The translations under genes were made by a program, and so were the position numbers. Positions 77 to 14,633 of a DNA stretch of 20,000 bases are shown here, in pieces (position 1 is the first letter of the stretch; each line of letters opens with the position of its first letter). Below the pieces are notes generated by a model that was not told the origin of the DNA, did no database searches, and saw only the letters and a list, made by a program, of their open reading frames with translations. The stretch comes from an uncultured virus (IMG/VR IMGVR_UViG_3300025109_000005) (Duplodnaviria; Heunggongvirae; Uroviricota; Caudoviricetes). Location: the IMG/VR virus record IMGVR_UViG_3300025109_000005; one strand, given 5' to 3'.

Positions 77-1966
77 ATGATCTGGCGACAGCCACACTAT
101 GTCTACCGCGTTCCCGCGAGCGCCGTCAGCATCGACTTGGATACCGTAGAGCACACTGTCCCGGGTGCCCTGGTCTACGCCTACTGGAACCAACGACGCT
201 ATCGACTGCGCCAGATGTCTCCCGACGAGAGAGTCGCTGTCTCCGAGTACGAAATCCTGGCACCCCTGCACGGAGCGTGGCTCGTCGAGTCGACGCTCGC
301 TCACCACCAGCTGCCCTACACTGCCATCGGCAAGGACGTAGAGGGTATCTCGTTCTGGAGTAACGTCGCAGAGGACCGAGCTGCGCTCGAGCAAGATGGA
401 CGCAACCGTGTCAACGACCTGATCTCCCGGGGAATCATCCGACCCCATGTCGCGGACATTCTCACGCCCTACCAGGCGATGTCCGTGAGCTGGGCGGTGA
501 GTCGTCCCTGGGTGTTCAACGTGTGGCCGTGCGGATCGGGCAAGACTCTTGGCGCCATCGTCGCCTCTTTCACGCGCACTGGCCCGACCCTCGTGCTCAG
601 TCCAGCTAAGGCACGGCATGTCTGGTGGTCCCAGGTGCAGGAATATAGCACGATCACGCCGTTCCGTGTACGTCCGCAGGGAGAAAGAAAAGAAGATGAC
701 GAGACTCTCGACAGCTACCTGCGCCGCATGGGCTCGTTGGCCTTTGTCGTGGTGGGTGGAGAAGCTGTCGGTTTGTACATCGATGAGATCAAGCGAGTGG
801 CGCCAACGGTTCTCATTCTCGATGAACTCCACACGCACGGGAGTCGCAAGCGGTGGCAGGCCATCCACAAGGAAGATGGCACCGTGGACTTCGAGAAGAA
901 GCGGACGAGCAAGAACAACGTGACCCGTGCTGCCCATGTCATGGAGGTTGCGAACATGGACGGCATCAACCTGCGCGTCGGCCTGACAGCCACGCCCCTG
1001 GACGACGGCAGGCCGCGCAGACTGTGGAGTCAGCTGGACCTGCTCACCCCGGGTGGCTTCAGCCACAGCTTCAGCAAGTTCGCGTTCCGTCACTGTGATG
1101 CCGCGCCAGGACAGTATGGGGGCTTCGACGACCGGGGCAGCAGCAACCTCGACGAGCTCCGGTCACGGTGCAGCTTCTTCACGCACGAGGTTCCCTATAG
1201 CGAGAGTCACGCCGCGCTCCCTGATACCCGGGTGCAGGTCGTCTACTTGGACCGCTCAGAACTGAACGGGGCAGGTCGGTTCAGCGACGAGCAGACATTC
1301 AAGCAGGCGTTCAAGTCTCTGTCGAAGGAGACCAAGTTCAACTATGTCGCTCGAGAGCGTATGATCGAAGCGAGGCTCGCAGAAGCCTGCAGTCGAAAGC
1401 GGGGGTTCGTCATCGACGAGGTGAAGCAAGGCGTGCGTGGTGGTGGCAAGGTGGCAGTGTTCACAGCAAGGCGTAACGAGGCCGAGGTGTGGGCGCACAA
1501 GATCAAGAAGTCTCTCACCGAAGGCGACGAGAAGCTCGCGGACATCACGGTGTGGACAGCTCACGGAGGTGTCTCCGAGACCGAGCGAGATCGCATCACC
1601 GATGCGTACCGAGACCACTCTGGTCCTTGCGTGCTCGTGGCGACAGGGCAGAGCGTAGGCACAGGTGTTGATGGACTTCAGACCACAGACGTTGCCATCT
1701 TCGCGATGCTGCCGTGGAAGCCCGGTGATTTTACGCAGTGGAAGGGTCGGTTCGACCGACTCGGAGGAAACCCGACGCTGTTGAAGGTCATCGTTGCGAC
1801 CGGCACTTACGACGAGCGGGTGGTAGGGATTCTCGTGGAGAAGTTCGGACCCATCGAGCAGTTCCTCCAGGCAGATGAGTTGGAGGGCCTGGACACCAAG
1901 CTGCTCGGCATTGCTGACAAGGACGCCATGGTCAACAGCATTGTCAGCAGACTGGAGGCACTGTGA
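77..1966 (+). CDS. SNF2-like superfamily 2 helicase
   Basis: Motif I PCGSGKT, motif II LILDELH, motif III LTATP, LWSQL, motif V GTGVDGLQ, motif VI QWKGRFDRLG; 629 aa. Confidence 0.9.
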   Translation: MIWRQPHYVYRVPASAVSIDLDTVEHTVPGALVYAYWNQRRYRLRQMSPDERVAVSEYEILAPLHGAWLVESTLAHHQLPYTAIGKDVEGISFWSNVAEDRAALEQDGRNRVNDLISRGIIRPHVADILTPYQAMSVSWAVSRPWVFNVWPCGSGKTLGAIVASFTRTGPTLVLSPAKARHVWWSQVQEYSTITPFRVRPQGERKEDDETLDSYLRRMGSLAFVVVGGEAVGLYIDEIKRVAPTVLILDELHTHGSRKRWQAIHKEDGTVDFEKKRTSKNNVTRAAHVMEVANMDGINLRVGLTATPLDDGRPRRLWSQLDLLTPGGFSHSFSKFAFRHCDAAPGQYGGFDDRGSSNLDELRSRCSFFTHEVPYSESHAALPDTRVQVVYLDRSELNGAGRFSDEQTFKQAFKSLSKETKFNYVARERMIEARLAEACSRKRGFVIDEVKQGVRGGGKVAVFTARRNEAEVWAHKIKKSLTEGDEKLADITVWTAHGGVSETERDRITDAYRDHSGPCVLVATGQSVGTGVDGLQTTDVAIFAMLPWKPGDFTQWKGRFDRLGGNPTLLKVIVATGTYDERVVGILVEKFGPIEQFLQADELEGLDTKLLGIADKDAMVNSIVSRLEAL

Positions 1967-2652
1967 AGCCTGCGAAGAAGCCGAGCTACGATATACGTCA
2001 ATGTCCGTTGACTGTTGTTCGCGATCTTTGTGAGCGGTTTCATGGGTACAAGAGCGCAGGAAGTAACGCAACGTATTGTTTTGCCGTCTACGAAAATGAC
2101 TGCGCAATAGCCGGCTATATCTGGTCGCCTCCGCCACCCGGTGCGGCACGCTCAGTGTGCCCTGAAGCGCCTCATGGTGTCTTGGCGTTGTCTCGTATGG
2201 TCGCTGTTCCCCGAGAAGAAAGACAGCTAAACCATATCAGTAAACCTTTGCGTCGTCAGATGCGGACCTTGATTGATCGTGGTCGTTGGCCCGTGTTGAT
2301 CACCTACCACGATGAGGGTCAAGGTCACACAGGCCACGTCTATAAGTGTTCTGGCTGGAAGCCGACTACACGTAATCGTCGACCGGTGTACGAGACTGTC
2401 GAGGGTAAGCGCGCGTCTTCTTACAGTAACGGCAAACATGGTAAGCGCAAACTGAGCCGAGTCGGCTGGACCTATGTACAACGATGGGAGCATTGGTCAT
2501 GTGCGCAAGGAACTGCGGCAGAGCACATCAAGCGCAGCGGTTGGGTGCGAGTACCCATACCCGGAAAGACATGGAAGTCGGGAAACCCTGCACACAGGTA
2601 TGAGTTCAAGCCAAAACAACTAACGAGCGCACCGGTAGTTAGGAGATCTAGC
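1963..2652 (+). CDS. Mom-like GNAT-fold DNA modification domain (N-terminal part of ORF 1963-3639, no stop before the nuclease)
   Basis: GTGA overlap with helicase stop; RFHGY, LALSRMV, LITYHDEGQGHTGHVYKCSGW resemble the Mom-family HY / ELxR / ISYAD..GHxGxIYxAxNW pattern; lower GC than flanks. Confidence 0.7.
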
Positions 2653-3639
2653 ATGACGGAAAAGCTAATCGACGCAGGGCGAAGCCTCCGTGGATGGAGT
2701 CGGGTCGGCAACTTCTTCAAGTGCCCGCAGCTGTACTCCTATGACCAGCACCTGCACATCGACCTGATACCTGCGAGCGCACTCACGCGAGGTTCGATGG
2801 GTCATGTCATGCAGGCGCACCAGCATGCCATCTGGGGTGCGCGGCAAGGGAGCGTGCTGGTCGACGGGGTGAAGCACACGGACTCACGAGACTTTCTCGA
2901 GCCCGCTGAAGCGATGTCTGTCTGGTGCGACCAGTACGGTGGAGACGAGCACTTCGACAGGATGCTCGACACGTTCGACAACTACATCATGCAGTACCCC
3001 GACCCGCCTGGACGCATCGTTGCTGTCGAGACTTCGGTGACTGCCGTGATCGGTACGCGTGAAGGGCAGTGGGGTCTATGGGTGGTTCATCCTGACGTAG
3101 GCGATCTCGACCAGCCGGTCACATCCGTTCCAGGCATCGACGGAGTCGTCATCGAGATCACGCCGCTCAACATGCCGGGCCATGACAGGCACGACTGCCC
3201 GATCTACCTGACTCGACGCATGGACCTGGTGGTCGAAGACCGCATGGGGCGCATCGCCATCTGGGACCACAAGCACCAAGCTAATGTTCAACCTAACCGA
3301 AGCGTAGATGCCTACGCCATCGACGGTGGATTCGCTGCATTCCGCATCATGGGCAGGCAGCTGTATGGTCGCAACTTCGGTGGGCTGCTGCTCAACCTGA
3401 TTCAGACCCAACCCTCTTGGAAGGTCGCTCGTCGAAGCGTGCCACCTACACCGCATCGGGACAGTCACTTCTGCGACATGCTCTGGCGCGCCGAGCACAG
3501 TCTCGCACAACTCGAGGCGAGCAATCTCGACCCGTGGATGTGGCCCAAGGCGATGAATGAAACGGCCTGCTATGGGCGCTACGGCGCCTGCTCGGCCATC
3601 AAGCTCTGTTTCTTCGGAGAGAGAGGAAAAGTCTGTTGA
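2653..3639 (+). CDS. Cas4/AddB-like PD-(D/E)XK exonuclease with probable 4-Cys Fe-S staple (C-terminal part of ORF 1963-3639; own start at 2653)
   Basis: AGGAG (2641-2645) 7 nt before ATG 2653; WSR..FFKCPQ, RGSMGH, VAVE, MDLVV..IWDHK, terminal CYGRYGACSAIKLC. Confidence 0.8.
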   Translation: MTEKLIDAGRSLRGWSRVGNFFKCPQLYSYDQHLHIDLIPASALTRGSMGHVMQAHQHAIWGARQGSVLVDGVKHTDSRDFLEPAEAMSVWCDQYGGDEHFDRMLDTFDNYIMQYPDPPGRIVAVETSVTAVIGTREGQWGLWVVHPDVGDLDQPVTSVPGIDGVVIEITPLNMPGHDRHDCPIYLTRRMDLVVEDRMGRIAIWDHKHQANVQPNRSVDAYAIDGGFAAFRIMGRQLYGRNFGGLLLNLIQTQPSWKVARRSVPPTPHRDSHFCDMLWRAEHSLAQLEASNLDPWMWPKAMNETACYGRYGACSAIKLCFFGERGKVC

Positions 3640-3690: not shown

Positions 3691-4656
3691 ATGGAAAGCC
3701 CCGTAATGATCTGTGTGTACGGGAAGCCGAAGAGGGGTAAGACCTCCGACGCTCTCGCTGCATTCCCGAATGCCCTGTTTATCGGCGTACCGAGTGCCAT
3801 TAGCCTCGTTGCGCAGAATGAGCTCGGGTTCACACCCGCTCTTCACACGCATCCTCCGCAGACGCTTGACGCCCTGGTACAGGTGCTCAAGGAACTTCAC
3901 GAGAGCGGAGCCGCCAAGAACTACGGTGCCATCGTCATTGACGACGCCAGCCACATCTGTCGACAGAGCATGCTCTTCTGGCAGGCGAATGCACCTCGAG
4001 GACGGTCGGGTAAGCCTGACCGCTTCTACCAGTACCAGCAGCTCAACGTGCACCTGCTCACGCTCAGCTCCATGAGCCGGCACCTGGGCTGTCACCTCCT
4101 CATGACCTTTCACGAGAGAGCACCGGGACACAACGCCGATGGTGCATTCTGCCCCGGCGGTCCCGACGTACCCAGCCGCAACCAGGTAGAGATGTTGCCG
4201 TCGTGGTGCGACATGAGCCTCCGCACGCTGATCGACCCGACGTACCCAGATCCGTGGTTCCAGGCGATCTATTCGTGCAACCCCTCTGATCCCGACTGGA
4301 TCACAGGTGACCGCACAGGTGTCTGTTCGAGCAGGACCCCTGCGAACATCCGAGAAATCCTGCGCGCGAGTCAGTCCGGCTACGAGCTCTCTCGCCTCGC
4401 CGGACTCGAGTGGCAAGAGGATGTTGCCAACCGAGTTGCCAACGGGCTACAGGATGGTGAGGATCTTCGCGGGCTGCTTCAGCAAATCGCAGCCGGACAC
4501 TCGGGCGACCCGCGCCACCTGCGGTGGGCCTGTCAGGACGGCATTGCTCGCGGAGTCCTCTCTCGACGCCTCAACCGAGGCTTGTTCGATTTCACTCTCG
4601 AGGAGTCATCCTCAAAACCCGGCGGCAATCTGCCACCACCCCCACCAACCCCCTAA
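3691..4656 (+). CDS. Sak4-like / AAA_24 P-loop ATPase (putative single-strand annealing recombinase)
   Basis: Walker A VYGKPKRGKT, Walker B IVIDD, LLMTFHER; lies between exonuclease and SSB-like gene; GGAG RBS. Confidence 0.8.
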   Translation: MESPVMICVYGKPKRGKTSDALAAFPNALFIGVPSAISLVAQNELGFTPALHTHPPQTLDALVQVLKELHESGAAKNYGAIVIDDASHICRQSMLFWQANAPRGRSGKPDRFYQYQQLNVHLLTLSSMSRHLGCHLLMTFHERAPGHNADGAFCPGGPDVPSRNQVEMLPSWCDMSLRTLIDPTYPDPWFQAIYSCNPSDPDWITGDRTGVCSSRTPANIREILRASQSGYELSRLAGLEWQEDVANRVANGLQDGEDLRGLLQQIAAGHSGDPRHLRWACQDGIARGVLSRRLNRGLFDFTLEESSSKPGGNLPPPPPTP

Positions 4657-4670
4657 GGGACTAAACCATC

Positions 4671-5318
4671 ATGGCAACTTTCCAAATCCCCGGTGAAATC
4701 ATCACCTCTGTCACCGCTCTCGGTGGCGGTGCGCCCCCGTCCGGCTACTACGCCGCAAAGATCGAGAAGATCGAACCTCACCCGTCGCGCGCCACGGCTC
4801 GTCGGATGACCCTGTCGTTCCAGGGCTTCTCCTGCACTGACTGGCTGAACACCCCCTACGATGTCGAAGGGAAGGCTATCGCCGGTCTCAACGAGAAGCA
4901 GGTTCGCGGCATGGTTGCTGCGATCAAGAGTGTCTTCCTGTCCGCTGGGTACACCAACGAACAGATGTCTCAGGGAATCAGCGACGACTGGCTGATCGAC
5001 AAGAGCGTCTGGCTCGAGTGGCATGCCGCCAAGGATTTGGGGGCCACCTACGGAAAGATCGACCGATACCTCACACAGGTTTCCTTCGACACTTTCCAGG
5101 CCGACGGATCCAAGCCGGCAGTTGCAGGAGCTGACGCTGTCAGTTCAAGCAGTGCCTCTGCAGCCGTTCCACCTGCGGTCGCTGCTGCAACACCGGCTCC
5201 GGCAGCTACTGTGGCTCCGGCTCCTGTTCCTGCACCTTCCAATGGTGCCTCTCAGACGACGATTGGTGGGGCTGTTCTGCCTCCTCCGCCCGTCGGCGCG
5301 CAGGGCCTGACCCAGTAG
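4671..5318 (+). CDS. Putative phage single-stranded DNA-binding protein (DUF669-like) with Ala/Pro-rich tail
   Basis: PPSGYYAAKIEKIE N-terminal motif, low-complexity tail, position directly after Sak4-like gene. Confidence 0.6.
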   Translation: MATFQIPGEIITSVTALGGGAPPSGYYAAKIEKIEPHPSRATARRMTLSFQGFSCTDWLNTPYDVEGKAIAGLNEKQVRGMVAAIKSVFLSAGYTNEQMSQGISDDWLIDKSVWLEWHAAKDLGATYGKIDRYLTQVSFDTFQADGSKPAVAGADAVSSSSASAAVPPAVAAATPAPAATVAPAPVPAPSNGASQTTIGGAVLPPPPVGAQGLTQ

Positions 5319-5324
5319 TTGTCA

Positions 5325-5370
5325 GGGGGTGGCCTCGACACCGGCACGTCGAGGTCATCCCCACCCTTTC
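5325..5370 (+). terminator. 15-bp stem-loop (terminator, attenuator or processing site) between SSB and polymerase
   Basis: GGGGGTGGCCTCGAC (5325-5339) pairs with GTCGAGGTCATCCCC (5348-5362) with 2 GU pairs and an 8-nt loop; short pyrimidine tail ACCCTTTC. Confidence 0.6.
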
Positions 5371-5381
5371 TCCGGTGCAGT

Positions 5382-8087
5382 TTGACTTTCAATCCCCAAG
5401 AACACGGCGCAAAGTGCGAGGTGTGTCCGCTCGGACCTCGTGGCTGCTTCAACGATGAGGACTGGCGCCCTGTCGGTCCAGAGATTCATGAAGGTGCCAC
5501 AGTTCTCGCTGTCGGAGAGAGTCCGTCGCACGAGGACACCCACCACCAGCGTCCTTTCATGGGTCGAGGCGCATCAGAGTGGGCGACAGCGCTGGCTGTG
5601 ATCTGCAAGAGTCGGCCCGACATCGACCTCACCAACGTCATTGCGTGCAAGCCTCCTGGTCAGGCCAGTGGTGCCTGGACACGGATGACGCGGAAGCTCG
5701 ACCGACTGAACAAGTCTCGACAGAGCAAGGGGCAACAGCCTCACCCTCACCCGATGACCTGTTGCCTGCCGCACTTGCACAGTCTGGCTGCCAAGTACGA
5801 GAACATCATCACGCTTGGTCGTATCGCGACACTCGCCCTGACTGGGCAGAACAAGAGCATCTTCTCTGTTCGCGGCGGCCCTATCTACGTCGATGAAGAC
5901 TGGCAGACTTCCGGGGAGGGCCGGCGCGTCTTTCCCACCGTGCACCCGGACTACATTACTCGAGCGCCGTCCTGGCGCAGTGTCCTGCACGCAGACCTGG
6001 GTAAGGCGTTTCGCTGGTTCACCGGAGCACTCAAGTGGACAGACCCAGACATTCTCTGGCGTCCATCGCCCGATGATCTACGCACCTTTCTTGCGCAGCC
6101 TGCACCCTACTGGGCATACGATGTGGAGACTGATGGAGTCGAGCCATTGGAGTGCGGGCTGCGCACCATCGCCATTGCCATCCCTGACCTGGATAGCAAG
6201 GGCCGAGTCGTCAAGGGTGGCCGGTCTGTTGCCCAGAACAGTTATGCCGTGGGCATCACGCTCCAGTCTGTGCGAGGCGCTCGGTGGCTCTGCCCCGAAG
6301 ACGAAGCCGAGATCAAGGACATCCTGTGCAAGGCGTTCACCGACGGGCGCACCTGGGTGGGGCACAACGCGGGTAGCTTCGACCGGATGGTCATCGAGAA
6401 CCACCTCGGTGTCACCCCCGCGCCTCTCGTCGATACCCTCTTCTCCACGCGGTTCCGTGCGCCAGACCTACCGAAGGGGCTGAAGACAATCGGATCCATC
6501 CTGACAGACGTGGAGCGGTGGGAATCCACAGAGAAAGGCGCAAGCATCTCGACAGGCACCACCGATGACGACGAGCTCCTCCGATACAACTGCATCGACA
6601 CCGTAGTCAACGCGCGCATCCTGCCCCCGCTCATCGAAGCGACAGACTTCAACGGTGCCTTCAGACAGCTGCCCGCGTGGGCGCGGCCTGCAAGCTGGCC
6701 CGACAAGCCCTGGAACCTACACCAGGTCGACCATGCCACCCAGGACATGTGCGTGCAGATGCACAAGGCAGGTGTCTGGATTGACCAGACTCGTCGTCGT
6801 CAACTCGAGGACCACTACACGGTCTTGGTGGGTCAACGTCAGAAGTGGCTCATCGATGAAGCCCGGGGATGGACGCAGACGTTCAACAACCCGGGTAGCG
6901 GGGACCAGGTACGCAACCTGCTCTACGACATCTGGTCACTGGGCATCCCTCCACAAATCGATGCGCGTGAGTTCTACACCGAGACGGGTCTCCCAGGAAC
7001 GGGGGATGCAGTCATCCGAGCGCACCTCGCTGCAGACAATGTCACTGCGAATCAAGCGACGTGGCTCAAGCAGCTGCGTGTGTATCGGCGGGAAAAGAAC
7101 AAGATCCTGGGCACTGTGCTCATCCCCATGCGCAGACGAGATGCAGACCCCGTGAAGGGCATCGTGTTCGAGGACGGTCGTGTCCGCAGCAACTGGAACG
7201 CACACGTCACCAGTGTGGGCAGGCTCAGCTCCAGTGGTCCGAACCTACAAAACATCGGCAACCGCAAGGGTCAGGCTCCGCTCAAGAGCATCTTCTCCGC
7301 ACCTCCTGGTCGAATGTTCATCGGGGCGGATCTGGACCAGGCCCACTTGAGAATCACCGCATGCTACTGGCGCATCCCGATGCTCCTCGAGTGCTTCGCC
7401 AGCGGACAGGACCCACACAACACGCTGGCGTGGAGCGTGTTCGGCGACAAGTTCAAGAGCGCAGACGGCTGGGGCCCAGACGGATTCAGCCTTCACCGCA
7501 AGCCCCCGGGCGGCCAGGCCAAGTCCATGCGCGACATCATCAAGACGTTCAGGTACGCATCCATCTACTGGGCGTCTCCCGCAACGGTCTGGCAGGTGCT
7601 CACTTCGACGGAGACGGATGAGGGCGATCTCCCCTACCTGGGATTCAGTCTGCGAGATGTTCGGTTCATCCACGATGCGTGGCTCGAGGCAGAGCCCGAA
7701 TGGATGAAGGCATGGCAGTCAATGCTCAAGCTCTACCGCCAACAGGGATTCATGGACGAGCCTGTGTTCGGCAGACGGTCGGGCCCCCTGAGCGATGGCA
7801 AGAAGAACGAAGTGGTCAACTACCCGATATTGAGTGCCGAGTCTGCCGTCATGCGGATTGCCGAGCAGCGTCTGATCGAGCAGTTCCCCTATGGATTCGC
7901 AGGACCCGGCACGGGACTCATCCACCAGTGCCACGACAGCGTTGCCATCGAAGTGCCCGACGAGGGAGAGCATCAGCTCGAGCAGTGGCGCAAGCTCGTC
8001 GAGCAGTGCATGACCGTCGAGGTTCCCGGGTGGGTGGTCACCATGACTTCCGAGGCCGCAGTCGGTAAGACTCTGAAGGAGGTCTGA
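5382..8087 (+). CDS. Family A DNA polymerase with N-terminal family-4 uracil-DNA glycosylase domain and 3'-5' exonuclease (SPO1-type architecture); start uncertain (TTG 5382 preferred over 5319)
   Basis: UDG: CEVCPL, GESPS..ED..RPFMG, TNVIACKPP, ITLG, PTVHP. Exo I YDVETDG, Exo II GHNAGSFD, Exo III YNCID. Pol: GRLSSSGPNLQNI, motif A ADLDQAHLR, motif B RDIIKTFRYASIYW, motif C CHDS. Confidence 0.93.
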   Translation: MTFNPQEHGAKCEVCPLGPRGCFNDEDWRPVGPEIHEGATVLAVGESPSHEDTHHQRPFMGRGASEWATALAVICKSRPDIDLTNVIACKPPGQASGAWTRMTRKLDRLNKSRQSKGQQPHPHPMTCCLPHLHSLAAKYENIITLGRIATLALTGQNKSIFSVRGGPIYVDEDWQTSGEGRRVFPTVHPDYITRAPSWRSVLHADLGKAFRWFTGALKWTDPDILWRPSPDDLRTFLAQPAPYWAYDVETDGVEPLECGLRTIAIAIPDLDSKGRVVKGGRSVAQNSYAVGITLQSVRGARWLCPEDEAEIKDILCKAFTDGRTWVGHNAGSFDRMVIENHLGVTPAPLVDTLFSTRFRAPDLPKGLKTIGSILTDVERWESTEKGASISTGTTDDDELLRYNCIDTVVNARILPPLIEATDFNGAFRQLPAWARPASWPDKPWNLHQVDHATQDMCVQMHKAGVWIDQTRRRQLEDHYTVLVGQRQKWLIDEARGWTQTFNNPGSGDQVRNLLYDIWSLGIPPQIDAREFYTETGLPGTGDAVIRAHLAADNVTANQATWLKQLRVYRREKNKILGTVLIPMRRRDADPVKGIVFEDGRVRSNWNAHVTSVGRLSSSGPNLQNIGNRKGQAPLKSIFSAPPGRMFIGADLDQAHLRITACYWRIPMLLECFASGQDPHNTLAWSVFGDKFKSADGWGPDGFSLHRKPPGGQAKSMRDIIKTFRYASIYWASPATVWQVLTSTETDEGDLPYLGFSLRDVRFIHDAWLEAEPEWMKAWQSMLKLYRQQGFMDEPVFGRRSGPLSDGKKNEVVNYPILSAESAVMRIAEQRLIEQFPYGFAGPGTGLIHQCHDSVAIEVPDEGEHQLEQWRKLVEQCMTVEVPGWVVTMTSEAAVGKTLKEV

Positions 8088-8509
8088 TGACAACCGCACG
8101 CTGGTTCCTGGCACACAGCAAGAGCTGTCCGGTCGAGCACATCGATACCTGGGCCAAGGCACTCACCCCAGCACTCACCTCACCGGGGTGGGATGCGCAG
8201 GTCACCTCGGCTCGAGACGACTATGAGCTCCGCGCGCGAGCAATGGGTGGGTGGCACCGCTGGTGCCAGGACGTGCCGAGGGGTGTGCGGTGGGATGGTA
8301 CGCCACTCTTCCACGGCATCATCATTCCCGAAGGACCCATCGTCGGTCGAGCGACAGACAGTCTGATTCGTGGGTTCCTCGATGCGGGTAAACATGTCTT
8401 TGCGTGGGAGCCCAGCACAGGCAGATTCCACGCTGTCAGCGGATTAAAGGAGCTCGGGCTCGACAACTGGAAGCAGTGGTCGAAAATCGTGTTGACTTCT
8501 ATATCTTGA
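8087..8509 (+). CDS. Hypothetical protein, possibly a degenerate nucleoside 2-deoxyribosyltransferase-like fold
   Basis: TGATG coupling to polymerase with AGGAGG RBS; N-terminal WFLAHS and C-terminal VGRATDSLIRGFLDAGKHVF resemble NDT YLAxP ... GxGTxxExxxAxxxGKPV. Confidence 0.55.
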   Translation: MTTARWFLAHSKSCPVEHIDTWAKALTPALTSPGWDAQVTSARDDYELRARAMGGWHRWCQDVPRGVRWDGTPLFHGIIIPEGPIVGRATDSLIRGFLDAGKHVFAWEPSTGRFHAVSGLKELGLDNWKQWSKIVLTSIS

Positions 8510-8540: not shown

Positions 8541-10466
8541 ATGGCAAAGAAACAAATCCCCCTCCACGTTCAACAGATCAAGTCCAACCTCAAGAGCATC
8601 GACGGCGAGGCCTGGCATGTCGATCTCGGAGACAAGACACTCATCGTCGGGCCGAACGGCAGTCACAAGTCTGCCATCGCCCAGTCTCTCGAGCTGGCAG
8701 TCAGTGGTGCCGCAGACGACATCGTCGGACGCACTGCCGTGAAGTCAGGAGACACCCTGCTTTCGACAGCTCACGAGGATGCTCTCTGGATCCAGGCGAA
8801 CCTCTCCAACGGGGAGATCTCCTCTTTCAAAGTACAGAGAGAGGACGAGAAAGTCAAGCGCCCGGCTCATGTCAGCAACAGCACGGCTGTCCTTCCCCTG
8901 CGGGATGTGAAGGCCGCACTGGCGGGCTCGACGTCCACGGCCATGCGTGCCTTCTTCACGTGGGCCTGCGCCGACATCAGTGAGGATGCGTTCATCGTCG
9001 AGTCGTCTCCAGCCGTGAACATCACCTCGTCGCAGGATGTGCAGGAGGCTCTCGACGCCTACGAGATCTACTCGCGTCACCGCAAGGACAGCCCTGCTGA
9101 CCGACTGCTCTCGCTGTACCAGTACACGGGTGAGCAGGTACGGAGTCGGTCAGGCAAGATCAAGGCGCTCGAGGCGAGAACCGTCGTCCTGCAGCATACG
9201 CTCTTCGATAGCTGTCCTTCCGACGAGGACATCGATGGAGCCAAGCAGCAACTGGTGCGCGCCGCGAGCGCGAACAGTGCGCCCACCCAGGAGATCGAAG
9301 CCGCAGAGGATGCGGTCCGTCTGTGGACCGAGCGAGTCAGGAGTCTGGACGCATCTCTCGTCTCCGACTCCATGGCGAACTGCGCGAACTCCATTCTCAC
9401 GACAGCGACATTCGAGCACCTGCAGAGTTGTCCTATCTGTGCCTCCCCGGTTGGATTGGAGCACCTGCGCGCATGTCAGAGCCACTACAGCGGACAGGCG
9501 GACGCAGAGACCGAGGCCATCAGCGGAGACATCGAGACTGCCAACGAGAACCTCGTGGCATGGAAGACACACCTGGAGAAGCTGCGTAGCCAGTCTGCCG
9601 TCGATAGCAGCTCGGTCATTCGTGCTGCCAACGAGTTGACCGACATGGTCGCCAATCGGAAGCAGTGGGATGAGTTCTCCCAGTGCCGTGAAGACGTCAA
9701 CGCACTTGAGGTAGAAGTCGACAGCTTCGGTCGAGCGAAGAAGGGCGTCGAGGTCATCATCAAAGACGTCCTCGCACAGCACACGATGTCATTCGTGGAG
9801 TCGGTGAACCGGTTCCTGCCCAAGGGGTACGTCTTCGACATGACCGTGCACCCGAAGCTGTCGGTGGGTCTGGTTCGTAACGGTGCTCTGCACACTGCCC
9901 TGAGCGGTGCCGAGTGGGTGACTGTGACGGCTGCCATCGCCATGGTCGCATCCTCTTCGATGGATGCCGAGCTTCGGGTCATCGTGCTCGAGGACCGTGC
10001 GCTCGACCCCGACACACTGCGCGGCCTGCTCAAGACGTTCAGTGCGTTCAATGGTCAGGTCGTCATCACCAGCGTGACCAAGCCGAAGGGTCGCCCCTTC
10101 AAGGCCTGGAAGGTCATCGACCTGTACAAGGCTCCGCTGTGCGATGCTCCAATAATCAGCGCTGCTCCCGAACCTGACGCTGCCCCAGAGCCCGAAGCAG
10201 AGCCCGAAGCAGAGCTCCCCCCTGCGCCACCGACGGAGCCCGTGGTGGTCAAGCGGCGCAAGCGGTCAGCCATCAAGGCACCCTCCTCGAGGAAGATCCT
10301 CAAGGGCTTGGGCTACACCGACGCTGACCTGGACGTCATGACGCCAGATACTGCGGTGAGCATCATCAAGGAGGGGCTGCTCGCCAAGGACGTGGACACG
10401 CACTCGGACGGCACGGTCACCGTGATCCTACGCCCGAACGTACACCAGCTTCCTCGCCTCCAGTGA
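8541..10466 (+). CDS. Rad50/SbcC-like SMC-type ABC ATPase with zinc hook and C-terminal extension
   Basis: Walker A-like GPNGSHKS, long helical region with central CPIC, signature LSGAE, Walker B/D-loop VIVLEDRALD, QVVITS; PE/AE-rich linker then small C-terminal domain. Confidence 0.8.
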   Translation: MAKKQIPLHVQQIKSNLKSIDGEAWHVDLGDKTLIVGPNGSHKSAIAQSLELAVSGAADDIVGRTAVKSGDTLLSTAHEDALWIQANLSNGEISSFKVQREDEKVKRPAHVSNSTAVLPLRDVKAALAGSTSTAMRAFFTWACADISEDAFIVESSPAVNITSSQDVQEALDAYEIYSRHRKDSPADRLLSLYQYTGEQVRSRSGKIKALEARTVVLQHTLFDSCPSDEDIDGAKQQLVRAASANSAPTQEIEAAEDAVRLWTERVRSLDASLVSDSMANCANSILTTATFEHLQSCPICASPVGLEHLRACQSHYSGQADAETEAISGDIETANENLVAWKTHLEKLRSQSAVDSSSVIRAANELTDMVANRKQWDEFSQCREDVNALEVEVDSFGRAKKGVEVIIKDVLAQHTMSFVESVNRFLPKGYVFDMTVHPKLSVGLVRNGALHTALSGAEWVTVTAAIAMVASSSMDAELRVIVLEDRALDPDTLRGLLKTFSAFNGQVVITSVTKPKGRPFKAWKVIDLYKAPLCDAPIISAAPEPDAAPEPEAEPEAELPPAPPTEPVVVKRRKRSAIKAPSSRKILKGLGYTDADLDVMTPDTAVSIIKEGLLAKDVDTHSDGTVTVILRPNVHQLPRLQ

Positions 10467-12448: not shown

Positions 12449-12590
12449 TCTGCGCCGAGGCACTCACGCCTATGTGAAATCGACTCGCGTGCAGTGGTAA
12501 TGAGAGCCCGAACAGGATAGACTTCAGAGGCTGCGGCATCACTGTCTCAGCCCCGGTAGTTTGACTAATCCCACCCCCGGAGGTGTTGCT

Positions 12591-14633
12591 ATGCCTGACT
12601 CGGCAGTCGGCTCGAGGACCAGCCTCGATCTGCTGCAGGGAGTTCGCTCGCGTCTACAACAAGCGTCACGTGGTGACATCGCCGCCATCTGGTCGGACCT
12701 CCAAGAAGTCGAGGTGCTCGAACAGCTCTCGGCGGAGTGGGGGGATGCACTACGCGCAGAGTTCACGGTCATCGAGTCGATACCCGGTTGCGCCCAGCGG
12801 ACCCGTACCCTGGTACGTTCCGTCGAACGTCTCGTCGAAGAGAACCGTAGTCGCCAGATTCGGGCGCAGATGGCTCAGCTCGAGCAGCAGATCTCTGTGG
12901 TCACGTCGCTCTCGGCAGAGCTCGATGTGCCGCCCGCAGTTGTCCCTGCTCCATGCCTCGCCCAGCTTCACGTCCCCTCTGGTTACCGGGTCAACGCTCG
13001 TGGTGTGTTCCGCGTGCGCCCCACCGAAGAGGGAGAGATCAGCGAGACCGTCATCGCACCTGCCCCCATCTTCCTGTCCAGGCGCTCACACGATGTGTTG
13101 ACGGGTGAGTCCAAGCGTGAGGTGGTATGGCATGGTGCCAGTGGTTGGTGCTCTCGAGTGGTCGACCGTCGCACCATCATGGACGCGCGCAAGATCATCG
13201 AGCTGACCGACTTCGATGCGCCCATCAACTCCAACGTCACCTCTGCCGTGGTCGCCTACCTGGCGGACTTCGAGGCAGAGAACGCCCACAGGCTTCCTGC
13301 CACCCTGTCGTCCTCGCGCATGGGCTGGCTACCTGACGGCTCGTTCCTGTTGCACGACAGGCACTACACCCAGGACGAGAGCGTCGGCTATGCCCTGACG
13401 CCTCCACCTGGTCACGAGAAGGCAGCGAGTGGTTGGTGTGCGTCCGGTGAGTGGGAGAAGTGGCAGGAAGCTGTCGAGCTCGTGAAGGACTATCCCTACA
13501 TGATGGTCTCCATCTACGCGAGCTGTGCGGCTCCGCTGCTCGAGGTGCTGGGGGTGCAGGGCTTCGTCCTCGACTTCTCTGGTGAGACCAGTGGCGGTAA
13601 GACCACCGCACTCAGGCTCGCAGCCAGTGTGTGGGGCAAGGCAGCAGACACCTACCCGACTGCAATCTACGGCTGGGATGCGACCAAGGTATGGATCGAG
13701 CGAACCGCTGGGTTCCTGCACAACCTGCCACTCATCCTCGACGAGACCAAGCGGGCCAAGCATCCAAGCGTCGTGCGCGATGTCATCTATGACTTCGTCC
13801 AGGGACAGGGTCGAGGCCGTGGCTCGGTCGATGGAACCCGACAGACCCATAGCTGGCGCAGCATCCTCATCTCCAGCGGTGAGGGCGCAGCCACCAGCTT
13901 CAGCCAGGACGCAGGAACGCGCGCTCGAGTCATCAGCCTGCGCGGCAAGCCGCTGGGCAACGATGCCGTCGTCGGCGGACAGATCAGTGAGGACGTGCAG
14001 ACCATCCTCGCTCGGCACCATGGACACCTCGGTCGGATGGTGGTCGAGTACCTGGTGAGCAACCAGCAGAACTACGAGACGTTCATCGAGGTGTTCCGCA
14101 AGACCAGGGACCACTACGCCAAGTCGGCAGGCAATGCTGTGGCGCGTCGACAGTCCTCGCACATGGCCGTGCTCGAGGTGGCCGCCAGCATCGCACACTC
14201 GCTGGGGTTGCCTCGTCCAGACGTCGACCCGTTCATGTGTCTGATCGAGTCAGCAGAGAGGGCAGGTCGAGATGCCGACCGTCCGCTCGCTGCCATGCAG
14301 GACGTGGTCTCATGGTGCGCAGTCAACCAGACGAAGTTCTGGGGACGTCACAACAAGCGGTCTGACAACACCACTGTCGCTCCGCACAACGGTTGGGCTG
14401 GTGCGTGGCCTGGCTCGACGAACTGGAGTGAGGTCGGCCTGACCAGCACAGAGCTCCGACGCATCCTACGAACCCACGAGTACGACTTCTCCGAGATCGT
14501 GGACCGCTGGGTCGAGCGCAAGTGGCTCAGGGTAGGCGGGAGCAGGACGACCAGGCCGCTTCGTATCGATGGGATGCAGGTGCGCTGCTACTGTCTGCGA
14601 CGAGACGTGGTCGAGATGCTCATAGAAGACTGA
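12591..14633 (+). CDS. DUF927-domain AAA+ replicative helicase/initiator (Cch / SaPI Rep-like)
   Basis: GGAGGT RBS before ATG 12591; RMGW, Walker A GETSGGKTT, SVWG, Walker B LILDE, GQGRGR, WRSILISSGE, GTRAR, HHGHLG, C-terminal RIDG..RCY winged-helix-like end; no primase domain recognised. Confidence 0.85.
   Translation: MPDSAVGSRTSLDLLQGVRSRLQQASRGDIAAIWSDLQEVEVLEQLSAEWGDALRAEFTVIESIPGCAQRTRTLVRSVERLVEENRSRQIRAQMAQLEQQISVVTSLSAELDVPPAVVPAPCLAQLHVPSGYRVNARGVFRVRPTEEGEISETVIAPAPIFLSRRSHDVLTGESKREVVWHGASGWCSRVVDRRTIMDARKIIELTDFDAPINSNVTSAVVAYLADFEAENAHRLPATLSSSRMGWLPDGSFLLHDRHYTQDESVGYALTPPPGHEKAASGWCASGEWEKWQEAVELVKDYPYMMVSIYASCAAPLLEVLGVQGFVLDFSGETSGGKTTALRLAASVWGKAADTYPTAIYGWDATKVWIERTAGFLHNLPLILDETKRAKHPSVVRDVIYDFVQGQGRGRGSVDGTRQTHSWRSILISSGEGAATSFSQDAGTRARVISLRGKPLGNDAVVGGQISEDVQTILARHHGHLGRMVVEYLVSNQQNYETFIEVFRKTRDHYAKSAGNAVARRQSSHMAVLEVAASIAHSLGLPRPDVDPFMCLIESAERAGRDADRPLAAMQDVVSWCAVNQTKFWGRHNKRSDNTTVAPHNGWAGAWPGSTNWSEVGLTSTELRRILRTHEYDFSEIVDRWVERKWLRVGGSRTTRPLRIDGMQVRCYCLRRDVVEMLIED

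Follow-up and report, generated by a model that had tools for sequence, protein, structure and literature searches.

The 20,000-nucleotide stretch of DNA analysed here (the window), taken from an uncultured virus of the class Caudoviricetes (IMG/VR record IMGVR_UViG_3300025109_000005), carries on its plus strand a polA gene (5319–8087) whose 922-residue product, P0001, is a family A DNA polymerase with an exchanged set of residues in its nucleotide-binding pocket. Histidine (His676) occupies the position of the glutamate steric gate, and its presence is strictly coupled to that of leucine (Leu838) in place of the glutamine that reads the minor groove and of glutamate (Glu841) further along the same helix; valine (Val633) is a soft fourth member of the switch. 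This His-type pocket is apparently an undescribed active-site variant of family A, and it is widespread in uncultured phages. We lean towards the view that, by analogy with the His gates of other polymerase families, the His-based gate would be functionally equivalent to the Glu gate and would keep the selection of deoxyribonucleoside triphosphates (dNTPs).

P0001 serves as replicative DNA polymerase in an uncultured phage whose genome measures ~70 kb; the complete genomes of relatives span 70–74 kb. The polymerase domain (residues 524–919; 6888–8075, plus strand) matched DNA_pol_A (PF00476) with 89.9 bits at a cut-off of 34.3. An AlphaFold2 model (predicted local distance difference test score (pLDDT), 89.1; predicted template-modelling score, 0.84) was matched by Foldseek to Klenow, Taq/KlenTaq and Bst structures with E 1e-25 and target TM-scores of 0.74–0.81. 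The assignment to family A thus combines a Pfam match above cut-off with a Klenow-like fold. P0001 also matches phrog_17 (E 1.5e-73), and a 922-residue protein identical to it is present in the database.

In the Pol I consensus, Glu710 (Klenow numbering) is the steric gate against ribonucleoside triphosphates (rNTPs), and Gln849 reads the minor groove. When P0001 was compared with all Protein Data Bank (PDB) chains by phmmer, its ADLDQAHLRI segment was set on ADYSQIELRI of Klenow and its VGRLSS on TGRLSS. Motif A (D-L-D-Q-A-H-L-R; 7329–7352) begins with the catalytic Asp671 (gat, 7329–7331) and places His676 (CAC, 7344–7346) on Glu710, so that no Glu is found at the gate, which is position A2 of Czernecki et al. 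(2023). The Thr of the TGR motif (Klenow T-G-R668) is replaced by Val633 (7215–7217), giving V-G-R with Arg635 kept. Motif B, the O helix (R-DII-K-TFR-Y-ASI-Y-W; 7530–7571), contains Arg738, Lys742, Tyr746, Tyr750 and Trp751, which correspond from Tyr746 onward to Klenow Phe762, Tyr766 and Gly767. Helix Q (N-YPI-L-SAE; 7818–7841) retains Asn834, the equivalent of Asn845, and has Leu838 (7830–7832) for Gln849 and Glu841 (7839–7841) for Ala852. Motif C (H-D-S; 7932–7940) consists of His872, the catalytic Asp873 and Ser874, the last at the position of Klenow Glu883. All of these elements lie on the plus strand. For helix Q, a profile of 120 homologues set N-f-P-i-l-a-a-e on Klenow N-a-P-m-q-g-t-a with a score for this stretch of just 1.6 bits; the Gln849 and Ala852 equivalences are nevertheless confirmed, because 153 Glu-type members of the family have the canonical residues in exactly the same columns. 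Relative to Klenow, KlenTaq and Bst, P0001 therefore shares the fold, the catalytic Asp pair, the Arg, Lys and Tyr of motif B and the equivalents of Asn845 and Arg668, but differs at Glu710, Gln849, Ala852, the Thr of TGR, Glu883 and Phe762 and in its extra N-terminal domain, which resembles a uracil-DNA glycosylase (UDG). An earlier note on this DNA had located these motifs, placed a His at the gate and a Tyr at Klenow position 762; all of its motif coordinates were verified on the sequence, and the alignments agree with both residue assignments. The Ser at Klenow position 883 had gone unflagged there.

Among 5.8 billion proteins searched, 518 were related to the polymerase half, and over that part the top 120 were at least 61% identical. 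In an alignment of P0001 with its 119 closest homologues (120 rows, identity 56% or more), His676, Leu838, Glu841, Tyr746 and Ser874 were each found in all 120 rows, as was Tyr750 at motif B position B4. The Asp residues of motifs A and C and the R-x3-K-x3-[FYL]-x3-Y pattern of motif B that characterize catalysis in family A are all present (Asp671, Asp873, Arg738, Lys742, Tyr746 and Tyr750), and Asp671, Asp873, Arg738, Lys742 and Arg635 are invariant in 52 diverse relatives, down to 28% identity. The same 52 proteins invariably keep Asp268, Glu270, Asp355, Tyr423 and Asp427 of the 3′–5′ exonuclease domain (6105–6599, plus strand). This domain has the complete DEDDy signature, with D-x-E in Exo I (Asp268, Glu270), N-x4-D in Exo II (Asn350, Asp355) and Y-x3-D in Exo III (Tyr423, Asp427), and its Pfam match is weak (PF01612, residues 263–390, 18.9 bits, under the cut-off of 23.6).

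These data bear directly on the possibility that the His gate reflects a sequencing error, isolated decay or a polymerase without activity. The only point in its favor is that the Glu of Klenow position 883 is also lost (HDS); against this, HDS or HDA occurs in the Glu-type sister polymerases and in N4-like polymerases as well. The three exchanged residues are invariant among close homologues and recur together in 211 family proteins, the catalytic and exonuclease residues are intact, and no second polymerase was detected among the scanned open reading frames (ORFs) of the window, of the tail of virus record G001 (36,966 b, estimated 52% complete, sharing 96% of the sampled words of the window) or of the complete relative G002 (70,080 b, polymerase 65% identical). 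The error or decay reading is refuted by this conservation, and its remaining probability is negligible. The proposal in the earlier note that the pocket was rewired under selection, with the catalytic Asp pair, the motif B residues, the Arg of GRLSS and the Exo motifs left intact, is borne out.

The composition of the switch was established from larger collections. A HMMER search of 1.84 billion cluster representatives gave 361 matches at E ≤1e-30, and the best 150 of these were aligned to the family hidden Markov model. In this set the gate column contained His in 95, Glu in 54 and Asp in 1, and the Gln849 column contained Leu in 88, Ile in 5 and Gln in 55; no His-Gln or Glu-Leu pairing occurred. 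Over 366 collected family proteins, a count that holds the window's own protein twice, the combination H-L/I-E was present in 211 and E/D-Q-A/G/S/C/N in 153, with two proteins truncated and none mixed. The suggestion that His710 and Leu849 co-occur is hence without exception in the 364 proteins with all three positions. Similar counts were obtained from 168 IMG/VR loci, which divided into [V/P]HLE (80), [T/S]EQ[G/A/S] (73) and incomplete (15), again with none mixed.

A mutual-information scan of 144 near-complete rows ranked columns 841, 676 and 838 highest (0.95), followed by column 633 (0.89) and then by a next value of 0.78. Position 841 is Glu in 90 of 90 His-type rows and never Glu in the 54 Glu-type rows, where Ala (36) and Gly (15) predominate, then Cys, Ser and Asn. 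Position 633 is less strict: His-type rows have Val (64), Pro (16), Ile (6) or Asn (2) and Glu-type rows Thr (35), Ser (15) or Gly (2), and the exceptions among the 366 proteins are one THLE, three MEQA, two NHLE and one NEQG. Glu841 and Val633, neither of which had been flagged in the earlier note, thus belong to the change, with Glu841 as a real third partner. By contrast, the UDG and exonuclease half holds no column that follows the switch, its highest value being 0.39 versus 0.95. Two further candidates were set aside. Trp751, which had been put forward as a pocket partner (Klenow 767), varies even in close homologues (Trp 83, Ala 21, Gly 15, Lys 1; n = 120), is also found in Glu-type rows and, on the trees described below, undergoes 12 changes with 144 rows and 20 with 363 rows. 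The HDS form of motif C is common to Glu-type sisters and N4-like enzymes; across the best 150 of the 361 representatives the Klenow Glu883 column contains Ser (78), Ala (44), Gln (11) and Glu (2), and two N4-like polymerases have H-D-A, likewise without the motif C Glu.

The closest comparison is with the Glu/Gln-type sisters of the same uncultured UDG-PolA family (for example P0173, P0187 and P0206), which are 33–45% identical to P0001, have the same UDG-exonuclease-polymerase architecture, mostly carry Tyr at Klenow position 762 and end motif C as HD[S/A/Q]. The same helicase, PD-(D/E)XK nuclease, Sak4-like and SbcC-like genes flank them. They differ from P0001 in having T/S-E-Q-A/G where it has V-H-L-E. 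To place the switch on the family phylogeny, trees were built after the trait columns had been removed. FastTree gave four state changes both on 144 rows, where three were forced by starred branches, and on 363 rows, where all four were so forced; a quick IQ-TREE search (LG+G4) on 82 rows also gave four, at least three of them forced, with the caution that branch supports from FastTree and from quick searches are optimistic. The best tree uniting all His-type rows was rejected by the approximately unbiased (AU) test, with lnL lower by 113 (p 0.0032). On these trees the Glu/His switch occurred about four times. Of the expectation that His710, Leu849 and Trp767 might co-occur as a clade, the coupling of His and Leu stands, Trp767 proves free, and a single His-type clade is rejected.

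Three small His-type groups lie inside a Glu-type clade: P0264; P0233, P0183, P0138 and P0226; and P0248, P0178 and P0213 with P0270–P0273. No locus was found for P0178 in IMG/VR. At nearby discriminating columns (680, 682, 689, 703 and 821) these nested groups resemble their Glu-type neighbours. Transfer of a large recombined segment into them is therefore unlikely on this alignment evidence, and coordinated substitution on several occasions explains the pattern more simply.

The coupled residues are taken to line one pocket, under the sugar and along the minor-groove edge of the nascent base pair, because their counterparts in KlenTaq and Bst adjoin one another. In ternary complexes of KlenTaq, a single water forms hydrogen bonds with Glu615, Asn750, Gln754 and O2 of the incoming base, and Gln754 and Arg573 read the terminal base pair at N3 or O2 (PMC6125688). 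The Gln754/Gln849 residue also hydrogen-bonds to the template base of that pair (PMC6125688 and PMC10520511), and a review of Bst describes Gln797, Arg615, Glu658 and Asp830 as close together and in electrostatic interaction (PMC10520511).

In canonical Pol I, Glu710 and Gln849 are bridged by a water, and the His-type pocket would be an alternative build of the same gate and sensor. Here, the carboxylate is shifted from the β-strand of motif A to helix Q, where Glu841, one turn past the former Gln, would approach from the other wall and fix the imidazole of His676 by a hydrogen bond; a His676-Glu841 contact probably exists. Leu838 and Val633 would pack on the imidazole ring. The hydroxyl of the TGR Thr is lost, usually in favor of Val or Pro, with Asn834 and Arg635 kept. 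The imidazole would still block the 2′-OH of rNTPs, like the His gates of families D and C, and the enzyme would remain a dNTP-selective proofreading replicase for ordinary DNA. We think, from the analogy with these families, that His676 would retain rNTP exclusion. In PolD (family D), His931 is an established steric gate with ~2300-fold discrimination that is abolished by H931A, and it may also bind the 3′-OH (PMC7708050). In Pol III α (family C), His760 is a modelled gate (PMC8485763). In both enzymes the His lies beside C2′ of the nucleotide being incorporated and keeps rNTPs out, as judged by mutagenesis for PolD and by modelling for Pol III; their folds are unrelated to that of P0001, and the analogy is functional only.

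Several points weigh against a functionally equivalent gate that arose repeatedly. Without Gln849, the enzyme lacks a direct contact to the template base in the minor groove, which could alter fidelity or template tolerance and need not be neutral. The independent-pairs test has only three to four pairs (p 0.25), which puts significance out of reach; the His-type group used in the AU test was defined after a first tree; and the trees are unrooted, so that gains and reversions are indistinguishable. Genome coverage for this phage itself amounts to ~41 kb (window plus G001), and most ORFs lack a known family, which leaves room for an unrecognised modification pathway.

The last of these points concerns the possibility, also raised in the earlier note, that the rewired pocket alters substrate chemistry, admitting rNTPs, 2′-modified sugars, a modified dNTP or modified templates. 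Both the gate and the Gln bound to the same water are changed, and each of these residues contacts the nascent pair on its sugar and minor-groove side (PMC6125688). The fused UDG keeps its family-4 motifs, and other UDG-PolAs are found in phages with T-modified DNA (PMC13697223 and PMC10201439). A gene for a Mom-like domain lies in the window, and G001 encodes a DNA methyltransferase. In T7 RNA polymerase, His784, which lies in the same region, takes part in ribose recognition. The gene content, however, gives no sign of such chemistry. Within 65 of the 73 ORFs of G002, a complete His-type relative, Pfam searches found no nucleotide-metabolism or base-modification family, including dNTP-modifying, thymidylate synthase-like, PurZ, ribonucleotide reductase or queuosine-type genes; of its other ORFs, seven head and packaging ORFs (among 14) were searched with PHROGs only, and a 1410-residue ORF spanning two loci was left out. 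Neither did scans of 23 ORFs of the window or of the G001 tail (18 ORFs, PHROGs only) reveal a nucleotide-modification gene.

The Mom-like domain (PF25680, phrog_1384; 1961–2649, plus strand) is fused in frame to the N terminus of a PD-(D/E)XK-type nuclease (ORF 1963–3639, plus strand). In strain L005, which is 99% identical and has the same polymerase, ~196 b replace window positions 1961–2649, with colinear sequence to either side, and five complete relatives match the nuclease part without the Mom-like part. Among 130 loci matching this ORF, the full fusion is present in only one other (L076, 52% identity). The idea that the Mom-like neighbour accounts for the pocket was consequently rejected, the module being a strain-variable insert. 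Furthermore, columns of the UDG domain do not track the switch, His gates of families C and D exclude rNTPs, and Glu-type and His-type phages share a replication module, so that about four flips among kin are hard to square with DNA chemistry having changed at every one. With gene content, the absence of the Mom-like part from close kin and the common replication module taken together, nothing was found that points to altered sugar or base specificity, and altered substrate chemistry of any of these kinds is considered unlikely. The related proposal that His-Leu-Glu is a family A solution with different sugar and minor-groove rules, one that accepts ribo- or 2′-modified nucleotides or an altered minor groove, is judged quite improbable.

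A further alternative is that the switch acts on fidelity or on the handling of lesions, and not on sugar selection, for example by easing extension past mismatches or past abasic sites generated by the polymerase's own UDG. The UDG-like domain of P0001 (residues 59–219; 5493–5975, plus strand) matched PF03167 with 43.5 bits at a cut-off of 24.3 and, by phmmer, the PDB family-4 UDG chains 1l9g, 1vk2, 4zbx and 1ui0 at E 3e-8 to 2e-6. It retains the GE-S-P, P-F-x-G and H-P motifs, which are also present in the family consensus, and four Cys residues (Cys33, Cys36, Cys110 and Cys149). By its domain matches, P0001 is a UDG-PolA fusion of family-4 UDG, exonuclease and polymerase. The contact of the Gln754/Gln849 residue with the templating base in the terminal pair (PMC6125688 and PMC10520511) would be consistent with an effect on fidelity, as would the finding that SP15-like UDG-PolAs remove dU in front of the fork and then read past the resulting abasic site (PMC13697223). 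By contrast, Glu-type sisters possess the same UDG domain and motifs, so that the presence of a UDG does not explain the switch, and no UDG or exonuclease column co-varies with it. A role in fidelity or lesion handling accordingly appears doubtful, and a dNTP-selective His gate is the reading that we continue to prefer.

No close counterpart of P0001 was found among cultured phages. In the August 2025 collection, no phage record exceeded ~22–27% identity over most of the protein, and megablast of the window against phage records gave no match. The best full-length match, from virus Rctr197k, has Glu and Gln at the gate and Gln positions. Czernecki et al. (2023) distinguished 19 PolA clusters in which key residues are strictly conserved, noted a single departure from TGR (cluster 14, T to A), and left UDG-PolAs outside the N4-like cluster as too few to classify (PMC10201439). 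A His gate is unmentioned in the available excerpts of PMC10201439 and PMC13697223. More widely, no natural or engineered His at this position of family A was found in the full-text literature, supplementary motif logos being outside that search.

N4-like UDG-PolAs (cluster #17, PMC10201439) resemble P0001 in their N-terminal family-4 UDG-like domain followed by exonuclease and PolA and in their HDA motif C, and tblastn aligned them at ~40% identity over only ~90 residues around motif A. However, the two enzymes checked keep the Glu gate and have S-G-R, and the cluster is described as having Phe at B3 and as having lost the UDG catalytic residues (PMC10201439), whereas P0001 has Tyr746 and the GE, PF and HP motifs; P0001 falls outside this cluster. 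SPO1-like and SP15-like UDG-PolAs likewise fuse a UDG with catalytic motifs to a replicative PolA, and the UDG of YerA41 and phiLo is an active enzyme that surveys template DNA in front of the replication fork (Missoury et al. 2026, PMC13697223). Unlike P0001, they have an E710-type gate with Phe and belong to phages with T-hypermodified DNA (PMC13697223); no thymidine-modification genes were found here. They additionally have two large inserts and a C-terminal domain, at ~1100–1300 residues; for the SP15-like kind the comparison with P0001 covered length (1306 residues for YerA41 versus 922) (PMC13697223). DpoZ, the 2-aminoadenine polymerase type, which is associated with PurZ and has Phe at B4 (Czernecki et al. 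2023), is also distinct, since P0001 has Tyr750 at that position, and no adenylosuccinate synthetase-like match was obtained in the window, the G001 tail or G002.

The Glu gate and the Gln849 contact have been treated as fixed in family A, and the His-type pocket represents a second, internally consistent solution. Its presence in hundreds of phage polymerases, reached several times and with no intermediates recorded, makes it a case of strong active-site epistasis and a natural template for engineers who mutate the same gate toward xeno nucleic acid (XNA) and RNA polymerases. If the His gate acts like those of families C and D, this would be a clean convergence across polymerase folds. Were the chemistry altered instead, relaxed or unusual nucleotide use in replication would extend across a large group of uncultured aquatic phages, and each Glu/His flip would record another change of chemistry.

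The window has ~60% G+C, and its replication module lies on the plus strand. Upstream of polA are genes for an SNF2-type helicase (77–1966), the Mom-nuclease fusion described above, a Sak4-like AAA_24 protein (3691–4656) and a conserved 215-residue protein with no assigned family (4671–5318). A 140-residue protein (8087–8509), an SbcC-like ATPase (8541–10466) and a DUF927 primase-helicase with a Cch-type helix-turn-helix domain (12561–14633) are encoded downstream, all on the plus strand. The G001 record continues into genes for the DNA methyltransferase, portal, large terminase and major head protein. The TTG start of polA directly abuts the stop of the upstream ORF (5319–5381 region). Residues 1–21 of P0001 have pLDDT below 50 in the AlphaFold2 model, and the homologue consensus starts ~20 residues further in; the true start is uncertain and may lie downstream.

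Comparison of His-type with Glu-type loci gave the following neighbour frequencies: Sak4-like protein, 72/86 versus 51/76; SbcC-like ATPase, 59/86 versus 50/76; nuclease, 63/86 versus 38/76; helicase, 55/86 versus 39/76; and the small upstream gene, 60/86 versus 37/76. The DUF927 primase-helicase cluster was found in 40 of 86 His-type and none of 76 Glu-type loci. As a correlate of the switch it was set aside, given that the His-type sample consists mostly of close kin of the window and is confounded by lineage; the difference is probably a lineage effect. In a cluster of five Glu-type loci, a tyrosine integrase (PF00589; L094, 16013–17116) is encoded near the polymerase, and His-type loci often carry a small HTH_3 protein instead (35 loci). 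Lifestyle may differ between the lineages in this respect.

A search of 185,579 species genomes gave only two matches (L179 and L180), on contigs of 70,027 and 28,763 b of one Myxococcaceae metagenome-assembled genome. The first is of whole-phage-genome size, and both are probably binned phage contigs rather than prophages; no host is claimed. In G002, an ORF of 4190 residues with no Pfam match (26087–38659; L085:7087–19659) lies downstream of the structural genes and is flanked by large ORFs of 1021 and 1410 residues.

Many polymerase homologues are 1200–1700 residues long and contain HNH, LAGLIDADG or intein-splicing Pfam domains (P0112, P0106, P0119, P0220, P0171, P0304, P0312, P0370 and others). 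In P0112 the match breaks inside motif B, which suggests that inteins or homing endonucleases are inserted in active-site motifs of these homologues.

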